Source: Candidatus Nomurabacteria bacterium
Lineage (GTDB): Bacteria > Patescibacteriota > Minisyncoccia > Phycocordibacterales > UBA9973
Length of the DNA stretch: 64,000 bases
NCBI GenBank assembly: GCA_023267375.1
Contig: JAHFNJ010000005.1
Coordinates: 1,285 to 65,284, forward strand
Direction: 5' to 3'
Shown here: positions 8,801-41,166 of the stretch, in pieces
Layout of the letters: every line of letters begins with the position of its first letter
Numbering within the stretch: position 1 is the stretch's first letter
Position numbers and translations under genes: made by a program
Notes under the pieces: generated by a model
What the model was told of the DNA's origin: nothing
What the model saw: the letters and a program-made list of their open reading frames with translations, nothing else
The model's database searches: none

Positions 8801-11498
8801 CGGATCGACTGTTGCCACGGGCACGACTACAATTAGTTCTGGGGCGACACTTACTACTACCGCGTCAAATTATGCGCTATCGACCGGGACGATTTCAATT
8901 GCTGGTACGCTCACTGCGAATGCCGCTACTATCTCGCTCTCGGGGACAGGTTCACTTTGGACAAAAACTGGAACGTTTACTCAAGGAACCTCAACAATAA
9001 AACTCACGGATGCATCTTCATCGAGTAAAACATTTGCAGGTGGTGGTGGAACGTTTTATAACTTCTGGATTTCTGGAACTGGTACTGGAGCATATACTAT
9101 TTCAGGTTCGAACACCTTTTCTACTTTTAAGGATGATAATACTTCAGCACACACCGTAAACTTTACTGCGAGTACAACACAAACAGTAACGACGTGGACT
9201 GTTTCTGGTGCAAGTAGTTCAAACAAGATTACAATGCAGAGTACTTCTTCTGGTAGTGCATGGAATTTGTCGAAATCAAGCGGAACAGTTACTTCAAATT
9301 ATTTGATTTTGCAAGATAGTCATGCTGCCGGTGGGGCAACCTGGAATGCAAACGGTAGTACAAATGTATCGGGGAACACCGGTTGGAATTTTGGCACGGT
9401 TTCTTGTACCTCAGTAGCTACTGGAGCTTGGAACACTTCTGCTACGTGGGATTGTAGTCATGTGCCTGCAACTGGTGAAACTGTTACCATCGCGGCTTCT
9501 CATGTTGTGACAATGGATGTTAATTCAGCGGTGCTCGGTTCTATTACTATTAGTGGAACCCTGACGACGAGTGCGAGTAATTACAGTTTGTCTGGAACAA
9601 CGATCACTATCGGTTCTAGTGGAACACTCACTGCCAACAGTTCAACCATTACGCTTTCTGGAACCTCTGGAACGTTGTTTACAAAAACAGGAACATTTAC
9701 AGCTGGGTCATCAACGGTGGTACTTTCAGGAAATGGATCTGCATCGGTAAATTCAGGTTCTATAATTTTCTACAATCTGACTTCTTCAGGGACAGGAACT
9801 AAAACAATTACAGGAACTACTGAAGTTGGTGGTGTGCTTACTGTTTCTGCTGGAGTATTCAGACTCAGTTCCGGTACGCTGGTACTTTCCGGAATTTCTG
9901 GGACACCAATTGTAAATTCAGGGACGATAAGTACTTTAAGCGCGACTACTGTTGTTTTTAGTGGTGATAATCCAGGGGGTAATACCACCATTCCTTCGTC
10001 AATCTCTTACTACAACCTCTCTTTTAATGGTACTGACACATACGATCTTTCAGGTGAAACAACCGTAAATGGGTCATTAGCAATTTCACAAGGAACTCTT
10101 TCTGCAGGGGCGCAGTATCTCAACGTTGCTAGAGATTGGATAAACTCCGTTGGAGTAGGTGGTTTTAGTGCTGGCACAGGGAGAGTTATCTTAAATACTG
10201 CTAATGACAGCACTATTACTGGCGCAACAACTTTTAATGATCTGACTATTTATTCTACTGGTGGTAAAAATGTATACTTTTCATATCAGGGTGGCGACAT
10301 TATCACTGTTGGTGGATCATTTGTTGTTACTGGATCTTCTGGGTCTCTTGTGTATCTCCGTTCAACGAGCTCGGGAAGTCAGTGGCATCTTTTGCCACAA
10401 GGTTCAGCGACGGTTGACTACGCCGACGTGATGGATGGTGGTTGTGAATCAGGAGCAATCACTATCACTGACAACCTTACAGATACTTCGATTGATTCGG
10501 GCAACAATGATTCATGCTGGTCATTCTTTGTGTCGCCTGCGGTGCGGTACATGCTTACGTCTGCAAATACTATGGATGTGTACGGCATCGGTGGTGGTTA
10601 TGGAGGATCGCCCGCGAGTCCGACTAAAATCCGTTCAGTTGCGCTTTCTGGTGGTTATACGCGCGTACAGCCAAAAAGTATTTTTGCTGAGGGGAGAACT
10701 GGTCGCATTTATGTGGCAACTAGTGATTCAAATGGGGAACTGCAAGTTTATGAAACAAATAATTATAACGGTTCAGGAAGTTCACCATCAAATCCGAAGT
10801 TGCTCACTACATACAATGCTTCTGTTTCTGGTACTGGAAATCGAGTTTGGGCGGATAGTGCCGGGAACGTGTTACTTGCCGTGTCGTCTGATACCACTGG
10901 CTCACTCATACTGCTTAACTCGAGCGGGGAAGCTGTTTCAAGTGCGAGTGCCCCAGCTACTATAAGTGATATCGCTGTGTATAAAGATACCGGTAGTACT
11001 GGATATGTGTATGTGGGTTCAGATGATACAACACTCCATATTTATTATTTTGATTCAGGTGGGGTGTATGACACAGGTAGCACTTTTGATATTGCGGTTG
11101 CTTCTCCGTATATAACTTCAGTAACAGCAGGCTCAGGCACAAAACTTGCGTACACTACTCTTGGTTCTGATCAGCTCTATTTAACAAATGATATTTCTCT
11201 CGATCCCGCGAATGCTAGTAATTCGTTGGTAACCGCTGAGAACTCTTCACTAGACACAGAGGTCCAAGGAGCTATCACTGCTTCAAGTTTGGGTGAGGTG
11301 CTCTTTGTTCCCGGTGCTGATGGGCTCTATCAGCCATATGTAAGTAATATTGCGGTGATTATTAATCCAGGAAACTACGCACCCTACACTCTCTCTGGGG
11401 GATTGACTGGTGTCTTTTATGATTCGACTGCAGTACATCTTTTTGGTTCTTCCGCTGTTGATGGGACGATACATTCGTTTGAACCGTATATACCGTAG
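5805..11498 (+). CDS. Giant (1897 aa) secreted repetitive surface protein; putative adhesin of the pilus locus
   Basis: Signal peptide ...FLFLASPHSAFA|VN. Four ~300-450 aa tandem modules each begin with a G(N/D/A)WNT..(N/T)W..C motif. Three internal sub-repeats of the form F(Y/N)(N/I)FWI(T/S)GTGTG...DDNTSAH...SGA(D/S)SS(H/N)KI were found. The unique C-terminal ~400 aa contains YADVMDGGCESGAITITDNLTDTSIDSGNNDSCW, shared with ORF 207-2507. Ser/Thr/Gly/Asn-rich. Confidence 0.7.
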   Translation: MAETYTIRNGALKKVFSFFSKRSKLFFTIGVCMFLFLASPHSAFAVNTCVSNASGNWNTAATWTSCSSTVPQTGDSVRISSGHSVVMDVDTPVLGNVTVRGTLNTSDGVTSHTLSASQLFVGESLGGYNGTFIANSSTINLSGTSAVLSIQTTSSIFTYGTSTVNFTGNSVSGMINLASSGSVTLYNVNSSGTGTKTISLANATITIANVFTISAGTVAFSTAVTSANLILSGTTGTPLNLTGGSFTATGNNTTVTYSGNNAAGNTTVAAATYGSLTLNNSSERYQLGGDITVGGTTIISASTEFTSSDGTDHNLTTGGLVISSNALFLMNSSTITITGNANTVASQFTNSSSRQDAIAAGTSTIKFTDTSVYSKTMSSATATFYNLWITGTGTGTYTITGSGSSSFTFNDIKDDNTSAHTVSLNSTIYVNTFNVSGADSSHKISLTKAGGAGVLHKTSGYVSIDYVNIANLTAQGGAAFYAGSHSTDNGGNSGWIFGDPSCTATTSGDWNTGGNWTGCSGGGGIPGTSDNVIVPSGINLTLSTNTATLGNVNVAGSIDTTGSNYAINAAGLVISSTGTVIANGSTITLSGTGAAFSLYGGIFSAGTSTINYTNSSSAAKAFTGGNGTFNNVTFTTGSTGTYTITGNNTFNIFWITGTGTGTFTFSSSSNTFTELKDDNTSAHSIFGNSSTQTVTTFSVSGADSSHKINFGLNVSKSSGVVVANYLTLTGSVASGGASWYAVNSNNGGGGTSGWVFISGCVAITTGNWNTGSNWSGCTGGGGVPAAADTVTIVSGVTTTLDVATPVVTGLTVSGTLDTSVTNYALNTTTLTISSGGTLTANGSTITLSGTSGTLFTNSGTFTAGTSTVDFSGASSVTLNSGSITFYNLTVSGGTVATVKTLGAATTLASGGTLTVSAGTFDPSTYLVTGNGSNTLVVAGGAVARVKASTFTGNYSSGFSSTSFAANSTIDYTLNGTQTVDSTISYVNLTVSTGGTKSLNGSTVATGTTTISSGATLTTTASNYALSTGTISIAGTLTANAATISLSGTGSLWTKTGTFTQGTSTIKLTDASSSSKTFAGGGGTFYNFWISGTGTGAYTISGSNTFSTFKDDNTSAHTVNFTASTTQTVTTWTVSGASSSNKITMQSTSSGSAWNLSKSSGTVTSNYLILQDSHAAGGATWNANGSTNVSGNTGWNFGTVSCTSVATGAWNTSATWDCSHVPATGETVTIAASHVVTMDVNSAVLGSITISGTLTTSASNYSLSGTTITIGSSGTLTANSSTITLSGTSGTLFTKTGTFTAGSSTVVLSGNGSASVNSGSIIFYNLTSSGTGTKTITGTTEVGGVLTVSAGVFRLSSGTLVLSGISGTPIVNSGTISTLSATTVVFSGDNPGGNTTIPSSISYYNLSFNGTDTYDLSGETTVNGSLAISQGTLSAGAQYLNVARDWINSVGVGGFSAGTGRVILNTANDSTITGATTFNDLTIYSTGGKNVYFSYQGGDIITVGGSFVVTGSSGSLVYLRSTSSGSQWHLLPQGSATVDYADVMDGGCESGAITITDNLTDTSIDSGNNDSCWSFFVSPAVRYMLTSANTMDVYGIGGGYGGSPASPTKIRSVALSGGYTRVQPKSIFAEGRTGRIYVATSDSNGELQVYETNNYNGSGSSPSNPKLLTTYNASVSGTGNRVWADSAGNVLLAVSSDTTGSLILLNSSGEAVSSASAPATISDIAVYKDTGSTGYVYVGSDDTTLHIYYFDSGGVYDTGSTFDIAVASPYITSVTAGSGTKLAYTTLGSDQLYLTNDISLDPANASNSLVTAENSSLDTEVQGAITASSLGEVLFVPGADGLYQPYVSNIAVIINPGNYAPYTLSGGLTGVFYDSTAVHLFGSSAVDGTIHSFEPYIP

Positions 11499-11527
11499 AT
11501 ATATCTATAATGTAAGGTTTGTTGTGG

Positions 11528-11536
11528 TGGTATAAT
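11528..11536 (+). promoter_or_regulatory. Extended -10 promoter element (TGgTATAAT) 8 nt upstream of the ATG of ORF 11545; possible leaderless transcript
   Basis: Sequence tggTATAAT at 11528-11536, with start codon at 11545. Confidence 0.35.
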
Positions 11537-11544
11537 AAAAATAC

Positions 11545-12078
11545 ATGCAGAGTAAACATAAGAAGATTATCGTAAGGGGTTCACTGCTCATCGTCTGTGT
11601 GGGAGTCTTTTTGTATGTCTATATTAGAAATACGGCAATTCGTGCTCCAGTATCGCCAATAGTTATACCAGAGGTAAGTCCTTTGCCAGAAAATGCTGAT
11701 AATCTCACCGGCGCAGATCTTGCTGCATACAACGAACGAATTGCATGGAAATCCTTATACGTGGGAAATCAAAAGCAGCTAAAAACAGCACAGCGTTTTT
11801 CATTGCCTGCTGGTTGGATTATCCGCGAGGATTATTTGTTTACTGTTTTGCCGCCAACGCTTGAATCAAAAATAAAAACCCATCGCGCTATTATTATGCG
11901 TCCACAAAAAACAATGAGTCGTGACGATGCTATTTTTACTGTAGTTAATACAAGTGATTCGTATTTGCAAAATCGTTGCCATAAAAGCACTACAAAGGTG
12001 AGTGTCTGCTATGGCGGGTCTAATCCCGAGACAAAGCAGGTGTTTGATTTACTCTTTTATCAATTCAAAGTACAATAA
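11545..12078 (+). CDS. Hypothetical membrane-anchored protein
   Basis: 177 aa. N-terminal TM helix (LLIVCVGVFLYVYI). No recognisable domain. Located between the giant protein and the major pilin genes. Confidence 0.5.
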   Translation: MQSKHKKIIVRGSLLIVCVGVFLYVYIRNTAIRAPVSPIVIPEVSPLPENADNLTGADLAAYNERIAWKSLYVGNQKQLKTAQRFSLPAGWIIREDYLFTVLPPTLESKIKTHRAIIMRPQKTMSRDDAIFTVVNTSDSYLQNRCHKSTTKVSVCYGGSNPETKQVFDLLFYQFKVQ

Positions 12079-20446: not shown

Positions 20447-21187
20447 ATGGATGAGACTCCTATAAAAAAGACAAACTGGAAACTAATATCTATTACAATA
20501 ATATTAGTTGTTATACAAGCAGCACTAGTTTTTTATGGATTTCTTCTTGTTATTTTTAATGGTCTCGATACTTATAGTCCAGAACTCGTTTTTCAGGGGG
20601 CAATTTTTTTACTTATTGCCACAGCCCTACCTATACCATTTGTACGTTCTGCTAAAAAATCAGGATCGCTTTCTATTCTTAGTTTAAACTTGTTTATTAG
20701 CGGAGCAACTGCTTTATTTTTGATAGGATTACTTCTCTCCTCTATTCTAGGTAGTATACAACACCATAAAGAACAAAAAGACTTTCAAAATAAAACTGCT
20801 ATCTATGCAGATGCTGCAAAAATTCAATATGAAAAAATACTAACTGAAACAAATGAAGTAAAAATTATAGGGTGGATGAATAACAATTCAGGAACTAATC
20901 TTTTGCAGACTGACAAGGGTTTCGAAGTCCACTTCAATGATATGTCATATGTACCTGAAGTAGTTGACTATATAAATAAAAACGTAATTGGGCGTACTGT
21001 TGATGTTGTTGTTCCTAGTTTTGTCTCTGAAAGTACAATATTTTTTGTTGATTCTAACGGCGGAGCTACGGATTCCACGATTAATTCAATACCTGTATGC
21101 GGATGTGATCTTAATGTTGATGGTAAAACTCTGACCCCTATTTTATCAAATATGCTACAGCAGCTTTTTAAGGAAGGAAAGTATTAA
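20447..21187 (+). CDS. Hypothetical membrane protein (3-4 TM) with extracytoplasmic C-terminal domain
   Basis: 246 aa. Hydrophobic N-terminal half. Markedly AT-rich (~30% GC) relative to the flanking gyrB and rdgB genes. Confidence 0.5.
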   Translation: MDETPIKKTNWKLISITIILVVIQAALVFYGFLLVIFNGLDTYSPELVFQGAIFLLIATALPIPFVRSAKKSGSLSILSLNLFISGATALFLIGLLLSSILGSIQHHKEQKDFQNKTAIYADAAKIQYEKILTETNEVKIIGWMNNNSGTNLLQTDKGFEVHFNDMSYVPEVVDYINKNVIGRTVDVVVPSFVSESTIFFVDSNGGATDSTINSIPVCGCDLNVDGKTLTPILSNMLQQLFKEGKY

Positions 21188-21732
21188 TGAAATCAAAACT
21201 CATCATTGTTACCGGCAATCCGCTCAAATTTCGAGAGCTCTCAGCCGCACTTGGTGAGTTTTTTGATTGTGAACAGCGGGTGCTTGAAGACAACTATGAA
21301 ATACAGGGAGCTCCAGAAGAAATTCTTCAACACAAACTCTTGCGCGCCTATGAGACTTTTAAACAACCGGTTTTGGTAGATGATACCTCGCTCCATTTTG
21401 AAATACTCGGAGGTTTTCCTGGTCCGTACATTCGAGATTTTTTTCGAGCACTCAAGCCATGGCAGATGGGGGAACGGTTTGCAGGGAGCCGTATTGAAGC
21501 AGTCTGTCGACTAGGAATTTGCAAAGGGGAGAATAATATAACTATCGGCGAAGGTCGCGTGCAAGGGGTGGTGGTGAAGCCTGAAACAAAAGATGATAAC
21601 GCACGAGAGTTTGATTTATTTTTTCTTCCTGATGGCGTAGAAAAAGTGATGCTCGAATATTCTCCCGAAGAGAAAAATGCTTTCTCTCACCGTGGGAATG
21701 CCATACGAGATTTGATAAGCAAATTACAATAA
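21187..21732 (+). CDS. rdgB: Non-canonical purine NTP pyrophosphatase (RdgB/Ham1 family ITPase)
   Basis: 181 aa. Motifs: KLIIVTGNPLKFRELSA..., VLVDDTSLHFEILGGFPGPYIRDF, FSHRGNAIRDL. These are typical Ham1/RdgB motifs. Confidence 0.75.
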   Translation: MKSKLIIVTGNPLKFRELSAALGEFFDCEQRVLEDNYEIQGAPEEILQHKLLRAYETFKQPVLVDDTSLHFEILGGFPGPYIRDFFRALKPWQMGERFAGSRIEAVCRLGICKGENNITIGEGRVQGVVVKPETKDDNAREFDLFFLPDGVEKVMLEYSPEEKNAFSHRGNAIRDLISKLQ

Positions 21733-21733
21733 C

Positions 21734-21759
21734 AAAAATCCCGCATATGCGGGATTTTT
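21734..21759. terminator. Bidirectional rho-independent terminator between rdgB (+) and thrS (-)
   Basis: Perfect palindrome aaaaaTCCCGCAtatGCGGGAttttt, flanked by A-run and T-run. Confidence 0.65.
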
Positions 21760-21760
21760 G

Positions 21761-23515
21761 TTATTTTCTTTCTTTAATTTCAGCAGAGACTGTTTGTATA
21801 AATTCTTCCGTTCCCATTTCCACTTTTGTCCCGTCACGTTTTTCAATCGTCAGATTACCGGACTCGATTTCTTTATCGCCCAGAACGATGGTGTAGGGAG
21901 TTTTCATTGCCTTTGCTGCATGAATGCGCTTCCCGAGGCTATCATTTGAAGAAATAATTTCGACGCGGATGTTTGCAGTTTTTAATTTTTTTGCAATCTC
22001 TTTGGCGCCCTCATCATGATTTTCGCGTACGGGAACAATCGCAACTTGAATGGGAGCAAGCCAAGTAGGGAAGTTTCCAGCGTAGTGTTCAAGGAGAATT
22101 CCCATGAATCTATCGGGAGATCCAATAAGTGCACGGTGAATCATTACCGGTGTTTTTCGGAGTCCGTCGCTATCAGTGAACTCAAGTTCAAATCTTTTTG
22201 GTTGATTGAAATCAAGCTGAATGGTAGATATCTGCCATTCACGTCCTAGTGCGTCGACTGCCATGATGTCTATCTTTGGTCCATAAAACGCAGCTTCACC
22301 CTCTGCGTCTTTATGAGGAATTTTTTTTTCTTCTAGAAGTTTCTTCATGATTGTTTGAGATTTTTCCCATACAGCATCTTCTCCTAGATATTTTTCTTTT
22401 TTGTTCGGGTCACGCAGTGAAAGTCGCATCCAGTATTCTACGTTATAGACAGCGAGCGCTTTTTCAATTGCCTCAAGTACGTGTTCAATCTCGCTTTCGA
22501 TTTGATCCTCTCGGCAGAAAATATGTCCATCATCTTGCGAAAATGCTCGTAGGCGCGTAAGCCCAGACATTTCCCCTGGACGCTCATCGCGGTAGAGGAC
22601 TGCAAAATCAGAATAACGGATGGGAAGGTCGCGATAACTTCTTGGTTTTGATGCGTAGATCTGGGTGTGCTGTGGGCAGTTCATCGGCTTTAAGAACATT
22701 TCATCGGAAACGTATTGTGATGTTACTGAAAGCATATCTTCTTTATATTTGTCGTAATGACCAGATATTTTGAATAGTTCTCCCTTGTTTATATTTGGTG
22801 TGTGTACTTCTCCGAAACCAAGCGCATCATTTAATTCGCGAGAGAATTTTATTATTTCTTCGCGTACAATATTTCCTTTTGGCGTAAACAATGGCATTCC
22901 AACACCGACTAAATCAGAAAAAGTGAAAAGATCCATTTCTCGTCCAAGTTTTCTGTGATCTCGTTTTTTTGCTTCTTCTTGCTGGAGAATGTATGCATCG
23001 AGTTCTTCTTTGGTAGGGAACGCTAGGCCGTAGATGCGGGTGAGCATCGGATTTTTTTCATCGCCGCGCCAGTAGGCGCCGGCCACACGATCTAGTTTGA
23101 ATGAGTCGGGTGAAATTTCTTTGGCTGGATTTTCAGCGTGTCCGCCGCGACACAGATCAGTAAATCCTCCGCAGGTATAGAGAGTGATTGTTTCGCCACG
23201 ATCAGCGATTTCATTGATGAGTTCTATTTTGTATTGATTGCCACTAAAGAGTGCGAGGGCTTCATCCTTTGACACTTCCTTGTGGGTAAATTCGGTCCAC
23301 TTCGGGAGGCTTTTCTTCATGTATTTCTCGATTTTCGCCAAATCAGCGTCGCTGATCTTTTCAGTGCCGAAATCAATATCGTAGTAGAAGCCATTATCTA
23401 CAGCAGGACCCAATGTAAGGTGGGCGTTTGGGTACTGGTCTTTGACAACTTGTGCCAAAAGGTGCGCCAATGTATGGCGGACATGGGCTAGTTTTTCATC
23501 GTTCATACCGGTCAT
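21761..23515 (-). CDS. thrS: Threonine--tRNA ligase (lacks N-terminal TGS domain)
   Basis: 584 aa. Begins in the editing-domain His motif (HVRHTLAHLLAQ...CGGFTDLCRGGH), followed by the class II catalytic core and the C-terminal anticodon-binding domain (...VAIVPVRENHDEGAKEIAKKLK...). Confidence 0.85.
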   Translation of the reverse strand: MTGMNDEKLAHVRHTLAHLLAQVVKDQYPNAHLTLGPAVDNGFYYDIDFGTEKISDADLAKIEKYMKKSLPKWTEFTHKEVSKDEALALFSGNQYKIELINEIADRGETITLYTCGGFTDLCRGGHAENPAKEISPDSFKLDRVAGAYWRGDEKNPMLTRIYGLAFPTKEELDAYILQQEEAKKRDHRKLGREMDLFTFSDLVGVGMPLFTPKGNIVREEIIKFSRELNDALGFGEVHTPNINKGELFKISGHYDKYKEDMLSVTSQYVSDEMFLKPMNCPQHTQIYASKPRSYRDLPIRYSDFAVLYRDERPGEMSGLTRLRAFSQDDGHIFCREDQIESEIEHVLEAIEKALAVYNVEYWMRLSLRDPNKKEKYLGEDAVWEKSQTIMKKLLEEKKIPHKDAEGEAAFYGPKIDIMAVDALGREWQISTIQLDFNQPKRFELEFTDSDGLRKTPVMIHRALIGSPDRFMGILLEHYAGNFPTWLAPIQVAIVPVRENHDEGAKEIAKKLKTANIRVEIISSNDSLGKRIHAAKAMKTPYTIVLGDKEIESGNLTIEKRDGTKVEMGTEEFIQTVSAEIKERK

Positions 23516-24135: not shown

Positions 24136-24209
24136 GCGGGCGTAGCTCAGCTGGTTAGAGCGCTCCCCTGTCACGGGAGAGGTCGTGGGTTCAAATCCCA
24201 TCGCTCGCG
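24136..24209 (+). tRNA. tRNA-Asp (anticodon GUC)
   Basis: Manual fold: GCGGGCG/TA/GCTC-AGCTGGTTA-GAGC/G/CTCCC-CTGTCAC-GGGAG/AGGTC/GTGGG-TTCAAAT-CCCAT/CGCTCGC/G. There is one G-U pair in the acceptor stem. Confidence 0.85.
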
Positions 24210-24241: not shown

Positions 24242-24389
24242 AATGCGAGCGAAGCAAGACAACTGCTTGTCTTGCGTTGGGATTTGAACAGCGGAGCTAT
24301 GTTTTACAAGCTTGCAAAACAAGCGAGCTGGTGCCCAGACCGAGCCGAGTGGCGACGAGGCGAGAGTCGCGGGAAAATCCCATCGCTTA

Positions 24390-24433
24390 CACACATAAGA
24401 AAATTCCCATAAAAAGGAATTTTCTTATGTGTG
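24390..24433 (+). promoter_or_regulatory. Perfect 18-bp stem hairpin 35 nt upstream of the AsnB-like gene start
   Basis: CACACATAAGAAAATTCC-cataaaaa-GGAATTTTCTTATGTGTG: 18/18 complementary pairs with an 8-nt loop. No clean T-run follows, so it is more likely a regulatory or protein-binding structure than a terminator. Confidence 0.4.
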
Positions 24434-35217: not shown

Positions 35218-36762
35218 ATGGTACAATGGTTTTGTATGGAAAATCATGAAGATTTTATAAAACCAAAGCAGGAAGAAAGTTCAGCAAAGAAAGGCATTAA
35301 GCGTTTTTTCAAGAAGGCGCTTTTTGCGACGACTGGGGTAATGATGGCGACTTCGCCGATGGTCTCTGCCAATCCGGAAAAAGGTGAAAATACAGATCAT
35401 GCGAAAAATAAAATAGAAGTGACTTCAGTAACAAGTCCTGAGAAGTTAAAAGAGGCAACAACAATAAACTTTTCCCAGTATTTCGAAACTGACAAGGCTG
35501 AAATTTCACCCGAAAATGCAGAGAAAATTGAGAAAGATTTCGACGAATTCCTTTCAAAGATAAATGCAGAAAATAGTAAACAGCTCCTTGCTTCTTCGTT
35601 TGTGTTGTATGGATCGAGCGATGAACGTCCGACAACGAAATGGGAGAATAATCTAGCGCTTACCAAGGCGAGGCTTTCTGTTGCAGAGCAGATTCTTTCT
35701 CGTGACCTAAAGAAGTATGATTTTTCTAAGCAGGGACTTTCGGTAGCGCAAATTGAGGCGCTCAAAAATCACCCATTTACTTTTAAAGTCGCGAACGAGG
35801 GACAGAAAGAATTTCCAAATGTTGAGGAAGGGACAACTCCATGGACTGCTATTACAAATCCAACTACTGGGAAACCGTATACAGAAGCAGAGAAATCACA
35901 AGCTCTTCAAGAAGCTCGCCAGGTAAAATTTTATGCAGAAATAATCGCTAGTGCTGAGAAAGGAATTGTGGGAAGCGAATCTGATATTTATGATATTCTC
36001 ACACATAAATTTGCTCCGTATTCAAAAGTAGCAGTTCTTGTCGACAACAGTCCTTCGATGATTAATTCTAAAAATTTACTTGCACGGGCGCTCACACGTA
36101 CCAAGGAAAAGCTTCCGCCGTTTATGGTTGGTACTTTTTCAAATACGGTTGATCGGTTAGTAAAAACTAATGATCCTGGTCAAGTACTCAGTAAACAAGT
36201 CATCGGGCAGGGTAGCGGTAATGAGCGTGTGCTCAAATCAATGATTGATGCGTTTGATCTAGGAGCTGGGAATACAAATCTTTCTGAAAAAGAAGTGATG
36301 ATCTTCGTTACCGATGAAGCGGTTCAGGATGCATCGAAAGTGAATTTCGAAGAACTGCAAAAACGGGCGCAGGAGAATAACTGTGATCTCTACATCATTC
36401 TTATTTCTAAAGATGCTAATAAAACAGTGATGCTTCCATTGAGTGAAATAGAAGCATCATATGACAGAGCTTTCGAGCAGGAAATGAGTGTTCTTGAAGA
36501 GCAAATTGCGAAACTCGAAACAAAAATAAAAAATACAAGTGAGAAAATTACTGAGATGCAGAATGAGGATGCTGTCGGAGGTGGAGACATCACTGTCGCT
36601 GAAACCCGTAAGCATATTCTGCAGAAACATCAGGTAATACTGCGCAAGGTTTCAAACGACCTTCAAGAATTGAAAGAGAAAAGAGATTCGATGACGAAGA
36701 AAGATTTTACCGTCACTCGATACAAGGTTGGGGATGAAACGCTCGCAATGAGCGCTATATAA
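35218..36762 (+). CDS. Secreted von Willebrand factor A (vWA)-domain protein with C-terminal coiled coil
   Basis: 514 aa. Hydrophobic signal-like segment is ALFATTGVMMATSPMVSA. MIDAS-type motif is VAVLVDNSPSM...MIFVTDEAVQD. The K/E-rich C-terminal heptad region is ...EEQIAKLETKIKNTSEKITEMQNED.... The true start may be an internal Met. Confidence 0.55.
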   Translation: MVQWFCMENHEDFIKPKQEESSAKKGIKRFFKKALFATTGVMMATSPMVSANPEKGENTDHAKNKIEVTSVTSPEKLKEATTINFSQYFETDKAEISPENAEKIEKDFDEFLSKINAENSKQLLASSFVLYGSSDERPTTKWENNLALTKARLSVAEQILSRDLKKYDFSKQGLSVAQIEALKNHPFTFKVANEGQKEFPNVEEGTTPWTAITNPTTGKPYTEAEKSQALQEARQVKFYAEIIASAEKGIVGSESDIYDILTHKFAPYSKVAVLVDNSPSMINSKNLLARALTRTKEKLPPFMVGTFSNTVDRLVKTNDPGQVLSKQVIGQGSGNERVLKSMIDAFDLGAGNTNLSEKEVMIFVTDEAVQDASKVNFEELQKRAQENNCDLYIILISKDANKTVMLPLSEIEASYDRAFEQEMSVLEEQIAKLETKIKNTSEKITEMQNEDAVGGGDITVAETRKHILQKHQVILRKVSNDLQELKEKRDSMTKKDFTVTRYKVGDETLAMSAI

Positions 36763-36859: not shown

Positions 36860-37969
36860 ATGGAAAACAACAGTGGCGGTGGATTTGAACGGTATATCTA
36901 TGGATACAAACGTGCAAAACAGGAAGCCGGAAAGGTGGGAGAAGAGACGAAAGGGATAGAAGTAAAAGAGTTTGGCCCGATTGATACAGAGATCAATGGC
37001 TATTTTTTTGAACTCCAGTCGCGTCTTGAGAAAAAAGCAGAAAAAGAAGGTGGGCGATTCAATTACAATACCTACGCCGAAACACTCTGGAAGGAGGTGC
37101 TCGATGGTGGCCAGTCACCAGAACGATTGCAAACTTTCAATAACTTATTGGTCCGAGAGCTACATAAGATAGATATGACTGAACATGTCTACGAACACGT
37201 ACAGCAAAGTTTGATTGATCTCGTAGAACAGTACTCTGATAAGGTAAAAAATATTGCACTCTGGTCAACGGGGGATACTTCGACAACGGGGTATCAGGCG
37301 GGTAAAATCCATAGTGCAGAAATTATTAAGAATTATCTTGCCGCGGTACGGGAATTAAAGAAACCCAAAATTCAGAAAGGTCAAGATAATAAAAAAGAAA
37401 AAACAGCGGATCAGAAATATCTTGATGAAAAAACTGCATACATGGTAGACGATAATAAATTCTCGCGACTCGTGAGTTTTATGGAAGGTAAAATTCCAAG
37501 CGAAGGTGATGAAAAAGTGAAAATAGTTATCATTGAAGATTCCCGAGGCAATTTTGCTAAGGCAGAAAAAGCGCTAACAGCACAGCTTGGAGAAAAAATG
37601 AAAAATGTAGAAATAATTCCAATCTGGGCTGCGTATAGTCGGGAGGGGATACAGGCACAAGAAAAAGCACAAAAGGATGCAAATCCAGATGAAGCGATCG
37701 AAAGACTTCATGATGAAAAAGAGAAGCTCAATACAATTCACAGTTTCAAAGAACTAAAAGGCGAAAAATTTCAGGAGATACTCTCGGATGCGTATGTCTT
37801 TGTCGATTTTGATGGGGTCATCGGTAACAATGTCACCATGCGCCAGAGCCAAGCACGGGCAATTTATGATTCGTTGATGACTACTGTTGTTGATGAGAAT
37901 CATACAGAAGAAAAAATAAAACAAGAAATGATCGAACGGATTAGGAGTATGAAAGAGTCTTCAAAATAA
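36860..37969 (+). CDS. Hypothetical K/E-rich cytoplasmic protein
   Basis: 369 aa. No confident domain. Contains a DxDG-like segment (YVFVDFDGVIGNN) near the C-terminus. Charged and low-complexity. Confidence 0.45.
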   Translation: MENNSGGGFERYIYGYKRAKQEAGKVGEETKGIEVKEFGPIDTEINGYFFELQSRLEKKAEKEGGRFNYNTYAETLWKEVLDGGQSPERLQTFNNLLVRELHKIDMTEHVYEHVQQSLIDLVEQYSDKVKNIALWSTGDTSTTGYQAGKIHSAEIIKNYLAAVRELKKPKIQKGQDNKKEKTADQKYLDEKTAYMVDDNKFSRLVSFMEGKIPSEGDEKVKIVIIEDSRGNFAKAEKALTAQLGEKMKNVEIIPIWAAYSREGIQAQEKAQKDANPDEAIERLHDEKEKLNTIHSFKELKGEKFQEILSDAYVFVDFDGVIGNNVTMRQSQARAIYDSLMTTVVDENHTEEKIKQEMIERIRSMKESSK

Positions 37970-38026
37970 TCTATGCATTTTCCCGAAAAAAATGAACACC
38001 TACCAAGTAGTAACAAAAATCGTCCT

Positions 38027-38686
38027 ATGACTCAACCAGAATTTCACACAAGTGCTTCACCCGAAAAAGAAGCAACAGCATATCTTGCAGAAACGTTGAA
38101 GCATGAGCTTGTGGGTGGTAAAAAAGTGCTCTGGCTACTCTCTGGTGGCTCTGCAGTTCTTGTTGCACAAAAAACAGCAGAAGCATTGCAGGGCATCGAT
38201 ATGAGCAACCTTACTGTTACTTTAATCGATGAGCGGTATGGCGATGTTGGGCACACTGATTCCAATTGGACAAAGCTTCAGAATGCGGGATTTTTTTTAC
38301 CGGGAGCAATGCTACACCCTGTACTTACCGGAGAGAGTAAAGAGACGACCTCGAAACAGTTTGCCGTATTCCTTGAGAATGCCCTCAGGGAAAATGAGTA
38401 TAAAATAGGTCTTTTTGGTATTGGAATAGATGGGCATACTGCCGGAATATTGCCGCACAGTCCGGCTGTGGCAGATACCCGTTTAGTGGTAGGATATACG
38501 ACGGAAACACACGAACGTATTACGACTACACCCGCACTCATCAGAGAACTTGATGAAGCAGTCGTGTACGCAGCTGGTGATGAAAAAAAACAAACACTTG
38601 AAATGTTGAAAGGAGACTATTCGATTGACGAACAACCGGCGCAGGCATTAAAACAAGCAAAAAAATTTATTATTTTTAACGATTAA
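38027..38686 (+). CDS. pgl: 6-phosphogluconolactonase (NagB/RpiA/DevB superfamily)
   Basis: ...KVLWLLSGGSAVLVAQKTAEAL...VTLIDERYGDVGHTDSNW...GLFGIGIDGHTAGILPHSP... matches the Pgl/DevB signature. The track start at 37973 adds 18 aa. Confidence 0.65.
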   Translation: MTQPEFHTSASPEKEATAYLAETLKHELVGGKKVLWLLSGGSAVLVAQKTAEALQGIDMSNLTVTLIDERYGDVGHTDSNWTKLQNAGFFLPGAMLHPVLTGESKETTSKQFAVFLENALRENEYKIGLFGIGIDGHTAGILPHSPAVADTRLVVGYTTETHERITTTPALIRELDEAVVYAAGDEKKQTLEMLKGDYSIDEQPAQALKQAKKFIIFND

Positions 38687-38700
38687 GGGAAAATCATTTT

Positions 38701-39609
38701 ATGAAAATAGCAATTTCTGGTTTGGGGAAAATGGGCATGCAGATTGTTCGCAAGCTGACTGAAGATGGACATGAAGTCATTGCGCACGATATTAATGCAA
38801 GTGCTATCGATGAAGCAAATACATATAACGCAATTCCTGCTGCTACACCAAAAGAAGTTGTCGGCGCGTTCAAAGAAGGGGAACAGTTTGTTGTTTGGAT
38901 TATGGTTCCTTCAGGCGTGGTTGATGATACGCTCGCAAACTGGCTCGAGATTATGCCAAAAGGAAGTATTATTATCGATGGCGGTAATTCAGATTTCCGT
39001 TTGACCAAAGAGCGCTCAAAGAAAGTGAGCAGTGCTGGTTCGTATCTTATTGACTGCGGTACGAGTGGTGGTGTGTGGGGATACAAAAACGGATTTGCCA
39101 TGATGGTTGGAGGTGATGAAGCATCTTTTAAAAAAGTGGAGCCGGTGTTACAAACGCTCGCAAAACCTGAAGGCGCATACCATTATTTCGGCGAAAGTGG
39201 CGCAGGTCACTTTGTGAAAATGACACACAATGCGATCGAGTACGGCATGATGCAGAGCTTGGCGGAAGGGTATCAGTTATTGAAAGATGGTCCGTATAAA
39301 ACTATTGACCTCGGTGCTGCGGGCGAAGTGTGGCAACACCACAGCGTGATTACGTCATGGCTCAATGAACTCTGTCGTGATGCGCTCAAAGCGAATCCAG
39401 AACTTTCCGGTATCGATGGCTTTGTTGCCGAATCTGGCGAAGCACGCTGGGCGCTTGAAGTTGCAAAAGAATTTGCGGTGCCGACGCCGTCGATCCAAGC
39501 ATCGTTTAATGTTCGCTTGGCTTCACAGAAAGGAGTTACCAACTTTGCTACGAAACTATTAGCCGCGATGCGTAATGCATTCGGTGGGCACCAGATTAAT
39601 AAGTCGTAA
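38701..39609 (+). CDS. gnd: 6-phosphogluconate dehydrogenase, decarboxylating, short YqeC-type
   Basis: 302 aa. MKIAISGLGKMGMQIVRKL (Rossmann GxGxxG) followed by the 6PGDH C-terminal domain (...HFVKMTHNAIEYGMMQSLAEGY...). Confidence 0.75.
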   Translation: MKIAISGLGKMGMQIVRKLTEDGHEVIAHDINASAIDEANTYNAIPAATPKEVVGAFKEGEQFVVWIMVPSGVVDDTLANWLEIMPKGSIIIDGGNSDFRLTKERSKKVSSAGSYLIDCGTSGGVWGYKNGFAMMVGGDEASFKKVEPVLQTLAKPEGAYHYFGESGAGHFVKMTHNAIEYGMMQSLAEGYQLLKDGPYKTIDLGAAGEVWQHHSVITSWLNELCRDALKANPELSGIDGFVAESGEARWALEVAKEFAVPTPSIQASFNVRLASQKGVTNFATKLLAAMRNAFGGHQINKS

Positions 39610-39620
39610 TTTATTTATTG

Positions 39621-39812
39621 GGAATCTACCTCAAAAATAATCATGATTATCAGTAATAAAAAAGAATCATTTCGCTACTACGGTCGCCAAAATCAGGCTA
39701 CGAACCGTCGAAACCTTAGTTGCAGTACGATGAGTACTGTTCCTGCGGTTTCTCGGATTCTCGCTTCTGATTTTGGCGACCTCGCGACGCGATTATTTTT
39801 GAGGTAGATTCC
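39621..39812. repeat. 192-bp nested inverted-repeat element (MITE-like or structured RNA) between gnd and zwf
   Basis: Outer 22-bp perfect inverted repeat: GGAATCTACCTCAAAAATAATC (39621-42) paired with GATTATTTTTGAGGTAGATTCC (39791-812). Inner 14-bp inverted repeat: GTCGCCAAAATCAG (39683-96) paired with CTGATTTTGGCGAC (39767-80). The outer right arm ends 10 nt before the zwf ATG. Confidence 0.5.
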
Positions 39813-39822
39813 TTTCTACGCT

Positions 39823-41166
39823 ATGGACACCGAAACACCAGTTATTCTCGTTATTGTAGGTATCACCGGAGACTTGGCGAAGCGTATGATCTTGCCGGCA
39901 ATTGGAAGAATCGCTGCAGCAGGTACGTTGCCGCATCATTTTCATATTTTAGGTGTGACGCGACAAAAGAATGTGTCTATCGACCACTTGCTCGCCAGAG
40001 TTGAGAATAAAGAATTTGTTACCGAGCACCTGCAAATTTTCCAGATGGATTTGGATAGTCCGAAAGAATACCATCGCTTAAAAACAGAGCTTGAAAAAAT
40101 AGAAAAGAAATTTGGTCGTGGAGCACAGCGACTCTTCTATCTTTCTGTCCCACCGCATGTTTCTGAAACGATTATTAAATATCATGGTGCATCTGGTTTG
40201 GCGAAAGTGGAAAAAACAAAACTGTTGCTTGAGAAGCCCTTTGGTATTGATATGGCGACTGCGACTGATCTTGTCGGGGAAATTGAAAAATATTTTTCGA
40301 ATGAGCAGGTATACCGTATTGATCATTATGTGGCGAAGGGAATGGCTCAGAATATAATCGTCTTCCGCGAGGAGAATTCACTGTTCCGTCGGACGTGGAA
40401 TAAAGAGTTTATTGAGCGCATAGAAATTATTGCGAGTGAATCAATTGGGATTGAAGGCCGTATTGGTTTTTATGAACAAGCTGGTGCGTTGCGTGATTAC
40501 GTACAAAACCACCTCTTACAACTAGCCGCACTTACTCTTATGGAAATTCCACCGTCGGGCTCTATGATGGAAGATGTTTCCGTGCGACGACTGGCAGCGC
40601 TTAAGGATCTTTATTTCCCGACAGATGCACCTCTTCAAAAGTACGTGAGGCGCGGGCAGTACCGAGGTTACACACAAGAAGTAGATAATCCAAAAAGTAC
40701 TGTGGAAACATTTACTGCGGTAACACTTTTTTCAAAAAACAGTCGATGGAAGGGGGTTCCTATTGTTCTGGTTGCTGGAAAAATGCTTGAGAAAAAAATG
40801 ACTGAAGTCCGTATCTTTTACAAAAAAGATCAGGAGACAGAATCAAATGAGCTCGTGCTTCGGTTGTATCCCGACGAGGGGGTGCTTATTCGAGTGTGGG
40901 CGAAGCGGCCAGGCTATCAGAAGGACGTAGAAAAACATATACTACGATTTACCTACGCAGATCACTATAAAGTCTTGCCTGAGGCGTACGAGCAGGTGCT
41001 GCTTGACTCCATTCGCTCCGATCAAAGTCGCTTTACCTCAAGTGCCGAGGTGCTTGAATCGTGGCGCATCCTTGCTCCTGTGCAGGAAGCATGGAAAAGG
41101 GGGAGCGACGATTTGTTTCTCTACGAACCAGGAGCCAGTGTCGCGGAGATTCTTACGCAAGAATAA
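39823..41166 (+). CDS. zwf: Glucose-6-phosphate 1-dehydrogenase
   Basis: 447 aa. ...VIVGITGDLAKRMILPAI..., EKPFGIDMATA and RIDHYVAKGMAQNIIVFR are the Zwf signature motifs. Confidence 0.85.
   Translation: MDTETPVILVIVGITGDLAKRMILPAIGRIAAAGTLPHHFHILGVTRQKNVSIDHLLARVENKEFVTEHLQIFQMDLDSPKEYHRLKTELEKIEKKFGRGAQRLFYLSVPPHVSETIIKYHGASGLAKVEKTKLLLEKPFGIDMATATDLVGEIEKYFSNEQVYRIDHYVAKGMAQNIIVFREENSLFRRTWNKEFIERIEIIASESIGIEGRIGFYEQAGALRDYVQNHLLQLAALTLMEIPPSGSMMEDVSVRRLAALKDLYFPTDAPLQKYVRRGQYRGYTQEVDNPKSTVETFTAVTLFSKNSRWKGVPIVLVAGKMLEKKMTEVRIFYKKDQETESNELVLRLYPDEGVLIRVWAKRPGYQKDVEKHILRFTYADHYKVLPEAYEQVLLDSIRSDQSRFTSSAEVLESWRILAPVQEAWKRGSDDLFLYEPGASVAEILTQE

Follow-up and report, generated by a model that had tools for sequence, protein, structure and literature searches.

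Bacterial MITEs are non-coding elements of less than 200 bp with terminal inverted repeats and a stem-loop fold in transcripts (PMC2229807). MITEs that fold as long stem-loops include Correia/NEMIS in Neisseria, ERIC in enterobacteria, RUP in pneumococcus, RPE in Rickettsia and YPAL in Yersinia; RPE and YPAL are without TA ends, and open reading frames occur in RPE and in the 107-bp form of Correia (PMC2229807). Compensatory changes are common in the mobile hairpins known as REPINs (PMC3116915). In the literature that we searched we found no MITE described from small-genome uncultured bacteria such as the hosts of the element analyzed here. Mobile repeats are thought to be scarce in very small, packed genomes of the Patescibacteria-like type. 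REP/BIME and other intercistronic hairpins are known to set differential mRNA stability in operons, an example being malE-malF of E. coli.

Here we analyzed a nested inverted repeat that lies between gnd and zwf in a 64-kb stretch of DNA, hereafter the window. We conclude, with a probability of about 0.75, that this element is a solitary copy of a new low-copy, MITE-like family of non-autonomous, hairpin-forming mobile DNA, found so far in three uncultured bacteria. Like bacterial MITEs, the element is shorter than 200 bp, has no conserved protein, carries terminal inverted repeats that close a long stem-loop and is intergenic within transcription units, with copies at unrelated loci and empty orthologous sites in relatives. 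Its likeness to Correia/NEMIS, ERIC, RUP, RPE and YPAL is one of described architecture, and we claim no similarity in sequence. It differs from bacterial MITEs in being present in 1–2 copies per genome as opposed to tens to hundreds, in having no detectable target duplication, in its unequal conserved subterminal motifs and in that no candidate parent insertion sequence was found.

The element is a rod-like, imperfectly palindromic, non-autonomous insertion of 192 bp at positions 39621–39812, which is exactly where an earlier note on this DNA had located it (the element and its internal parts are given without strand). Its outer inverted repeat is 22 nt long and 100% complementary, with the left terminal arm GGAATCTACCTCAAAAATAATC at 39621–39642 pairing with the right terminal arm GATTATTTTTGAGGTAGATTCC at 39791–39812, and the right arm ends 10 nt 5' of the zwf ATG. 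The terminal repeat is thus as perfect as had been claimed. The inner repeat was likewise perfect and enclosed a core of about 70 nt as described, but at 15 nt it proved one base pair longer than the 14 bp first given: its left arm GGTCGCCAAAATCAG is at 39682–39696 and its right arm CTGATTTTGGCGACC at 39767–39781, 100% complementary and with 70 nt between them. The predicted fold adds an asymmetric left internal loop of 39 nt (39643–39681), composed of a small variable side hairpin and the motif TTCGCTACTAC (39671–39681), and an apical region of 70 nt (39697–39766) that forms an imperfect hairpin. A conserved block, CCTCGCGACGCGATTATTTTTGAG (39780–39803), includes the mini-hairpin TCGC-NAC-GCGA (39782–39792).

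In the 64-kb window the outer 22-mer occurs at these two places only, against 0.00 occurrences expected from shuffles, and the inner arm sequence is found at the element only, with none expected by chance. The RNA fold of a 221-nt region has a free energy of −90.1 kcal/mol on the plus strand and −91.6 kcal/mol on the minus strand, as compared with approximately −46.5 ± 4 kcal/mol for dinucleotide shuffles of the same region (z of −10.8 and −11.1, respectively), and none of 200 shuffles folds as well as the element region. Folding with DNA parameters gave z values of −10.2 and −11.8. The nested inverted repeat is a genuine feature, well outside what chance would give.

The element separates two genes of a pgl-gnd-zwf cluster. 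Upstream of gnd lies pgl (37973–38686); gnd itself (38701–39609, plus strand) encodes a short-form, 302-aa 6-phosphogluconate dehydrogenase with Pfam domains NAD_binding_2 and 6PGD, and the gnd stop codon is 11 nt 5' of the element. Downstream, zwf (39823–41166, plus strand) encodes a 447-aa glucose-6-phosphate dehydrogenase with Pfam domains G6PD_N and G6PD_C, whose N-terminus aligns with its homologues. Flanking spacers are thus 11 nt on the gnd side and 10 nt on the zwf side. Among the related loci, 25 have gnd immediately upstream of zwf, with a distance of −11 to +25 nt between the gnd stop and the zwf start, and the median gene-to-gene gap in the window is ∼25 nt. At the window locus this distance is 213 nt, of which 192 nt are the element, so that 21 nt are left once it is removed. 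A spacer of 213 nt, as opposed to 25 nt or less in relatives, indicates that the element is an insertion. The comparison of the gnd-zwf spacer among relatives that the earlier note had called for thus bears out an insertion, with 25 of 25 junctions free of the element and the genes either overlapping or no more than 25 nt apart. With the 192 bp excised, the gnd-zwf junction would read TTTATTTATTG joined to TTTCTACGCT.

These relatives are distant, the closest Zwf homologue having just 62% identity; those with taxon names belong to Nomurabacteria, Falkowbacteria, Saccharimonadales and Paceibacterota, by which we judge the bacterium that carries the window to be Patescibacteria/CPR-like. Sequences identical to the Zwf, Gnd and 54-aa open reading frame of the window recur in four further assemblies of this organism, and the spacer is base-for-base identical where it was aligned (L001, L002). 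Exact Zwf and Gnd look-ups in these four assemblies returned no empty-site variant of the strain; the site is filled throughout. We also note that tight packing recurs at the 3' end of zwf, which is overlapped by 29 nt (window 41138–41166) by a DUF218 gene as called in L001 (genes 10001–11344 and 11316–12038), and that two open reading frames on the same strand directly upstream of pgl, at 35218–36762 (514 aa) and 36860–37969 (369 aa), are without significant Pfam matches.

Two other uncultured bacteria carry homologous elements of 186–188 nt with the same architecture, which occupy three unrelated sites between genes. A full-length copy at L090:1817–2002 (L010 is the same contig) was found by an nhmmer search with the element against fetched zwf loci; the spacer that holds it is 337 nt long and separates a DUF5667 gene from a DUF5666 gene, to both of which the copy is antisense. 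The other two copies were reached through P0122, a relative of an open reading frame embedded in the element. One, at L106:4459–4646, lies between scpA and scpB and is present on L106 and four other contigs; the other, at L107:7141–7328 and also on L109, is flanked by a lactamase_B_3 gene and by a 68-aa gene that lies upstream of gyrA. The exact P0122 sequence is encoded at these two loci, which co-occur in one JGI metagenome and one ENA assembly (whose independence is uncertain), and the scpA/scpB locus is additionally present in three further assemblies. From the co-occurrence in two assemblies and from similar G+C contents we infer that L106 and L107 derive from one genome. As a separate observation, gyrA on L107 (7691–11554) carries an intein with a LAGLIDADG domain according to precomputed Pfam matches.

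Over 188–189 nt the copies on L106 and L107 are 100% identical. Their flanks are unrelated, and the identity breaks off precisely at the base of the stem, TAGAACC...GGTTCTA, as is characteristic of a discrete unit that has recently moved or been duplicated. In all, the family counts four insertions from three lineages, and the two identical copies occupy different loci. Between lineages identity falls to 61–72%, and the G+C content of each copy is roughly that of its host contig (42% vs 48%). Terminal repeats are 22 bp and perfect in the window copy, 21 bp in L106 and L107, and 18 of 22 in L090. Covariance models score the family copies at 126–226 bits in one orientation, and the window copy scores 203–227 bits against models R1 and R2 in plus orientation but 42–65 bits when reversed.

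Insertion sites were compared at base resolution. Removal of the 188 bp from L106 yields ...CCA AAA TAT / TAA TCCT ATG (the slash marks the junction), which gives scpA a normal stop codon four bases before the scpB start; the present scpA stop codon is a TAG supplied by the left end of the element. For L107 the same removal predicts TAG ATT / GTCA ATG as the junction before insertion. The pre-insertion junctions of the three sense-oriented copies thus measure 4–21 nt. An alternative model, in which a terminal TA is a duplicated target, leaves scpA without a stop codon and fused in frame to scpB, and is rejected at the scpA/scpB site for that reason. Family-type ends can be written as GAAYCTAYCTCAAAAATAA, with terminal dinucleotides of TA...TA or CA...TA in the other copies as compared with GG...CC in the window; the 5'-TA...TA-3' termini of L106 and L107 are missing from the window copy. 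Since the terminal dinucleotides covary (GG with CC, TA with TA), they behave as positions of the stem and not as a duplicated target. The window copy has no direct repeat in ...TATTG / GGAATC...GATTCC / TTTCT, and across the insertion sites of the family we found neither a consistent target-site duplication nor a common target motif. The TA or TTA duplication that the earlier note had proposed to look for is thus absent at the window copy, and its TA form fails at scpA/scpB.

To describe the conservation of the fold we scored covariation on an alignment of four sequences from three lineages with a consensus of 56 pairs; these are few lineages for such statistics, though the control in which pairing partners were slid along the alignment is clear. 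Paired cells amounted to 95.5%, compared with 35–44% when partners were slid by 1–3 columns, and 25 of the 56 pairs had changed on both sides with pairing kept, compared with 1–4 when slid and a value reached by none of 500 shuffles. In helix 1, formed by the outer arms, differences in one arm of the other copies are compensated in the partner arm; both sides had changed in 7 of 14 pairs of helix 2 (the inner stem) and in 14 of 17 pairs of helices 3 and 4 (the apical region). This number of two-sided changes indicates that the rod shape is conserved. The right terminal arm is the best-conserved part of the family. The block at 39780–39803 is nearly invariant in the three lineages, its mini-hairpin TCGC-NAC-GCGA varying at the loop base only (G, C or A). 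In the left internal loop the motif TTCGCTACT is invariant in all four copies, with the remainder of the loop variable in sequence and length. Two conserved regions are without a palindromic partner, namely TTCGCTACT on the left and CGC-N-ACGCGATTATTTTTGAG on the right.

Because pairing is equal on both DNA strands, this covariation is uninformative as to whether the folded molecule is DNA or RNA. The minus strand of the element folds better in every lineage (−98 vs −72.8 kcal/mol for L106, −72.7 vs −56.6 for L090 and −91.6 vs −90.1 for the window). As the better-folding strand is the same whatever the direction of the host genes, the asymmetry is a property of the element and gives no sign of selection on host mRNAs.

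A conserved rod of 186–192 nt with a large asymmetric internal loop, strongly covarying helices (25 of 56 pairs compensated) and unpaired conserved motifs TTCGCTACT and CGC-N-ACGCGATTATTTTTGAG might also be expected of a free-standing small RNA gene, for example a 6S-like rod of ∼190 nt that each genome carries once or twice at variable intergenic positions. The presence of 1–2 copies per genome fits such a gene, and a single match in ∼450 kb of related DNA would agree with about one copy in each small genome. We nevertheless regard an RNA gene as unlikely. The block of identity between L106 and L107 ends at the foot of the stem, so that no promoter or terminator travelled along, and the window copy has just 11 and 10 nt of spacer at its sides. 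No promoter-like or terminator-like site was detected at the element on either strand, and the lack of a U-tract after the stem on either strand makes an intrinsic terminator unlikely. Rfam gave no match at the gathering threshold or at E values up to 10, 6S included. Perfect helices of 22 bp and 15 bp are moreover unusual for a stable RNA, and the stop codon supplied to scpA at one site fits better with an insertion. Conceivably, the rod is a novel small RNA that has its own function and spreads as DNA. Integron attC sites, retrons and SRP RNA were considered and set aside, since the end motifs did not match, the vicinity had no reverse transcriptase and Rfam gave no match.

The position of the window copy had suggested in the earlier note a dedicated cis-regulatory RNA of zwf, in which the outer stem would sequester the ribosome-binding region in a pgl-gnd-zwf read-through transcript and thereby regulate the opening step of the oxidative pentose-phosphate pathway. 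The copy does lie in sense orientation in a co-directional cluster and forms an extremely stable hairpin whose end, 10 nt before the zwf ATG, would place it at the 5' edge of the footprint of an initiating ribosome. On the other hand, none of the 25 other gnd-zwf junctions that we examined carries the element, nor do the remaining sequences upstream of zwf in the fetched loci (538 kb for R2, ∼600 kb for R1), and it is found instead before scpB, before the 68-aa gene and antisense between the DUF5667 and DUF5666 genes. Shine-Dalgarno sites also appear to be rarely used here, since GGAG or GAGG occurs at −16 to −5 in only 1 of 43 long open reading frames of the window; the GAGG of the right arm is 18 nt from the zwf ATG, which is itself unpaired in the predicted fold. 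No alternative fold of the ligand type was seen and, as noted above, there is no Rfam match. A dedicated zwf regulator is thus very unlikely and largely refuted. As the family adjoins unrelated genes elsewhere, we view the window copy as an inserted passenger and not as a switch built for zwf.

It had also been stated that the element holds no open reading frame, which is wrong: a 54-codon ATG open reading frame (39643–39807, plus strand) lies entirely inside it, with its stop codon 15 nt before the zwf ATG, and is called as a gene in several public assemblies. If these calls were taken at face value the element would be the gene of a 54-residue protein. A full HMMER search of 1.84 billion representative proteins returned a single relative, P0122, the 52-aa open reading frame of the L106 and L107 copies (58% identity, E = 2.7e-8), and no other; P0123 and P0124, from the same search, were rejected as unrelated repetitive proteins. 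A word-indexed protein search missed P0122 despite several common exact 5-residue words, so its negative results on short peptides need caution. The exact open reading frame occurs at the window locus only, in all assemblies found, and P0122 at no more than two loci in the other genome. Although the gene calls and the 58% identity of P0122 favor a protein, the two versions differ at 17, 11 and 19 first, second and third codon positions, respectively, and thus show no third-position excess, with 22 non-synonymous and 7 synonymous codon changes. In L090 the frame is broken and has no ATG. There is no Pfam match, and the peptide is a translated palindrome. The open reading frame therefore bears no sign of selection at the protein level and is very probably not a protein gene.

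The layout of the open reading frame is nonetheless regular. In all three sense-oriented copies an ATG follows immediately upon the left arm, the frame runs through the whole rod and the stop codon lies 10–15 nt before the start of zwf, scpB or the 68-aa gene; in the antisense copy (L090) it is destroyed. From two independent sense lineages and one antisense lineage, it is conceivable but improbable that the element is a self-contained mobile module compatible with operons, its rod maintained by selection and traversed by a through-reading frame. Were this frame translated, ribosomes would melt a hairpin of −73 to −90 kcal/mol and terminate beside the downstream start. Translational coupling could thereby be re-established across the insertion, which might account for the tolerance of the element within junctions of 4–21 nt between tightly packed genes.

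Returning to the low-copy mobile family, we searched for more copies and for an enzyme that could mobilize them. No second copy was found in the 64-kb window with exact arms, blastn-short, nhmmer or covariance models, so the high copy number typical of a MITE, which the earlier note had proposed to check, was not seen. Further family members were likewise absent from the ∼600 kb (R1) and 538 kb (R2) of fetched loci, and blastn of plasmids and phages with the element gave nothing relevant. Exact scans with the terminal 20-mer or 18-mer of the window copy across 185,579 representative genomes returned one match, in an AT-rich coding region of a Flavobacteriaceae genome; it has no partner arm and was taken as chance. 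The same end had 0 exact matches in JGI metagenome contigs and 0 in IMG/VR viral contigs, and a degenerate family-consensus end had 0 in viral contigs. Genomes and metagenomes were thus scanned with the window-type end, and the family-consensus end was applied to viral contigs; within this coverage no transposase or parent insertion sequence with matching ends was found.

The conserved 17-mer ACGCGATTATTTTTGAG has 12 matches in viral contigs, about the number expected by chance, and only that in L096 extends further. This stretch (L096 7325–7356, IMG/VR 3300033144_006355) has ∼31 nt, GGGACGCGATTATTTTTGAGGTGGATTCGAG, that are nearly identical to the conserved right end of the element; it lies inside an open reading frame of the viral contig (...TRDAIIFEVDSSAH...) without a partner arm and may be a chance match or the trace of a source sequence.

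Taken together, the MITE proposed in the earlier note largely holds. Insertion, a family at unrelated sites and identical dispersed copies speak for it, while a target duplication, a high copy number and an empty site within the strain were not found.

A variant of this explanation is that the element moves as single-stranded DNA through a Y1 (HUH) transposase in the manner of REPINs or IS200/IS605 elements, and not as a cut-and-paste MITE. We consider this a possible route, though on balance a doubtful one. As in the REPIN/RAYT system, the unit would be an extragenic, non-autonomous hairpin with compensatory changes of the kind reported for REPINs and no classical target duplication (PMC3116915). 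In agreement with such movement, no target duplication is seen, the element ends exactly at the foot of its hairpin, its two ends are unlike and carry conserved subterminal motifs and mini-hairpins, and one strand of the element is always the better folder whatever the direction of the host genes. In addition, a RAYT-like Y1 (HUH) transposase gene (L107 11609–12379, also on L109; 229 aa) lies 4.3 kb from the L107 copy. This gene scores only 42 bits against the NCBIfam model REP_Tyr_transpos, for which the cut-off is 80. It is flanked by palindromes of its own of 25–35 nt (ATGTGGGACATCCGATGTCACACAT), a third copy of which lies in frame inside the coding sequence at 11807–11841. As these palindromes are unrelated to the element, we dropped a partnership with this Y1 gene. 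The element thus differs from the REPIN/RAYT system in that no RAYT is flanked by it and the lone RAYT-like gene nearby has different palindromes. It also differs in that its arms are not REP-like palindromes, and in that it is about twice the usual REPIN length (∼190 nt vs roughly 70–110 nt). Also against this route, the 64-kb window has no Y1 gene, and no copy other than that of the window has a GTAG tag.

Based on these results we propose that an element of the low-copy, MITE-like family inserted into a very short gnd-zwf junction of the pgl-gnd-zwf cluster, with the ends of the insertion forming the base of a long rod-like stem. The compensatory changes suggest that propagation is restricted to copies that can fold as single-stranded DNA or RNA, and the enzyme that moves the element would presumably act in trans. 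The copy between gnd and zwf is most likely a tolerated passenger that probably does nothing by design. If the cluster is co-transcribed, as gene spacing and strand suggest, the mRNA would contain a rod of about −90 kcal/mol 10 nt before the zwf start. Such a rod would end the close gnd-zwf coupling typical of relatives and, as a by-product of the insertion, could lower or otherwise alter zwf translation or create a site of mRNA processing. By analogy to REP/BIME, to which we do not assign the element, a very stable stem-loop between two cistrons of one transcription unit would be the likely route for a side effect on gnd/zwf expression.

These results imply that a 190-bp hairpin element can insert precisely into junctions of only 4–21 nt between genes that are co-transcribed and be maintained in them; at one site the upstream gene now takes its stop codon from the element. 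They also call for caution, in that a perfectly paired, covarying structure before a metabolic gene resembles a regulator of the riboswitch type and yet appears here to be a passenger. Should the hairpin shift the ratio of gnd to zwf expression, the locus would represent a case of operon expression altered by an insertion.

Several other features of the window were noted. An extended −10 box, TGGTATAAT, occurs 6–8 nt 5' of the ATG at several genes (starts at 11545, 28647 and 29360), which suggests leaderless or near-leaderless mRNAs. A perfect 38-nt palindrome, AATAACAAAAATCCCGCAT/ATGCGGGATTTTTGTTATT (21728–21765), lies between the convergent genes 21187–21732 (plus strand) and 23515–21761 (minus strand) and resembles a bidirectional intrinsic terminator. 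The T-arm region of tRNA-Asp is repeated in inverted orientation ∼70 nt downstream of the gene (24189–24204 and 24274–24289), and a perfect 18-bp hairpin at 24390–24433 overlaps the start of a 1044-aa open reading frame at 24427.
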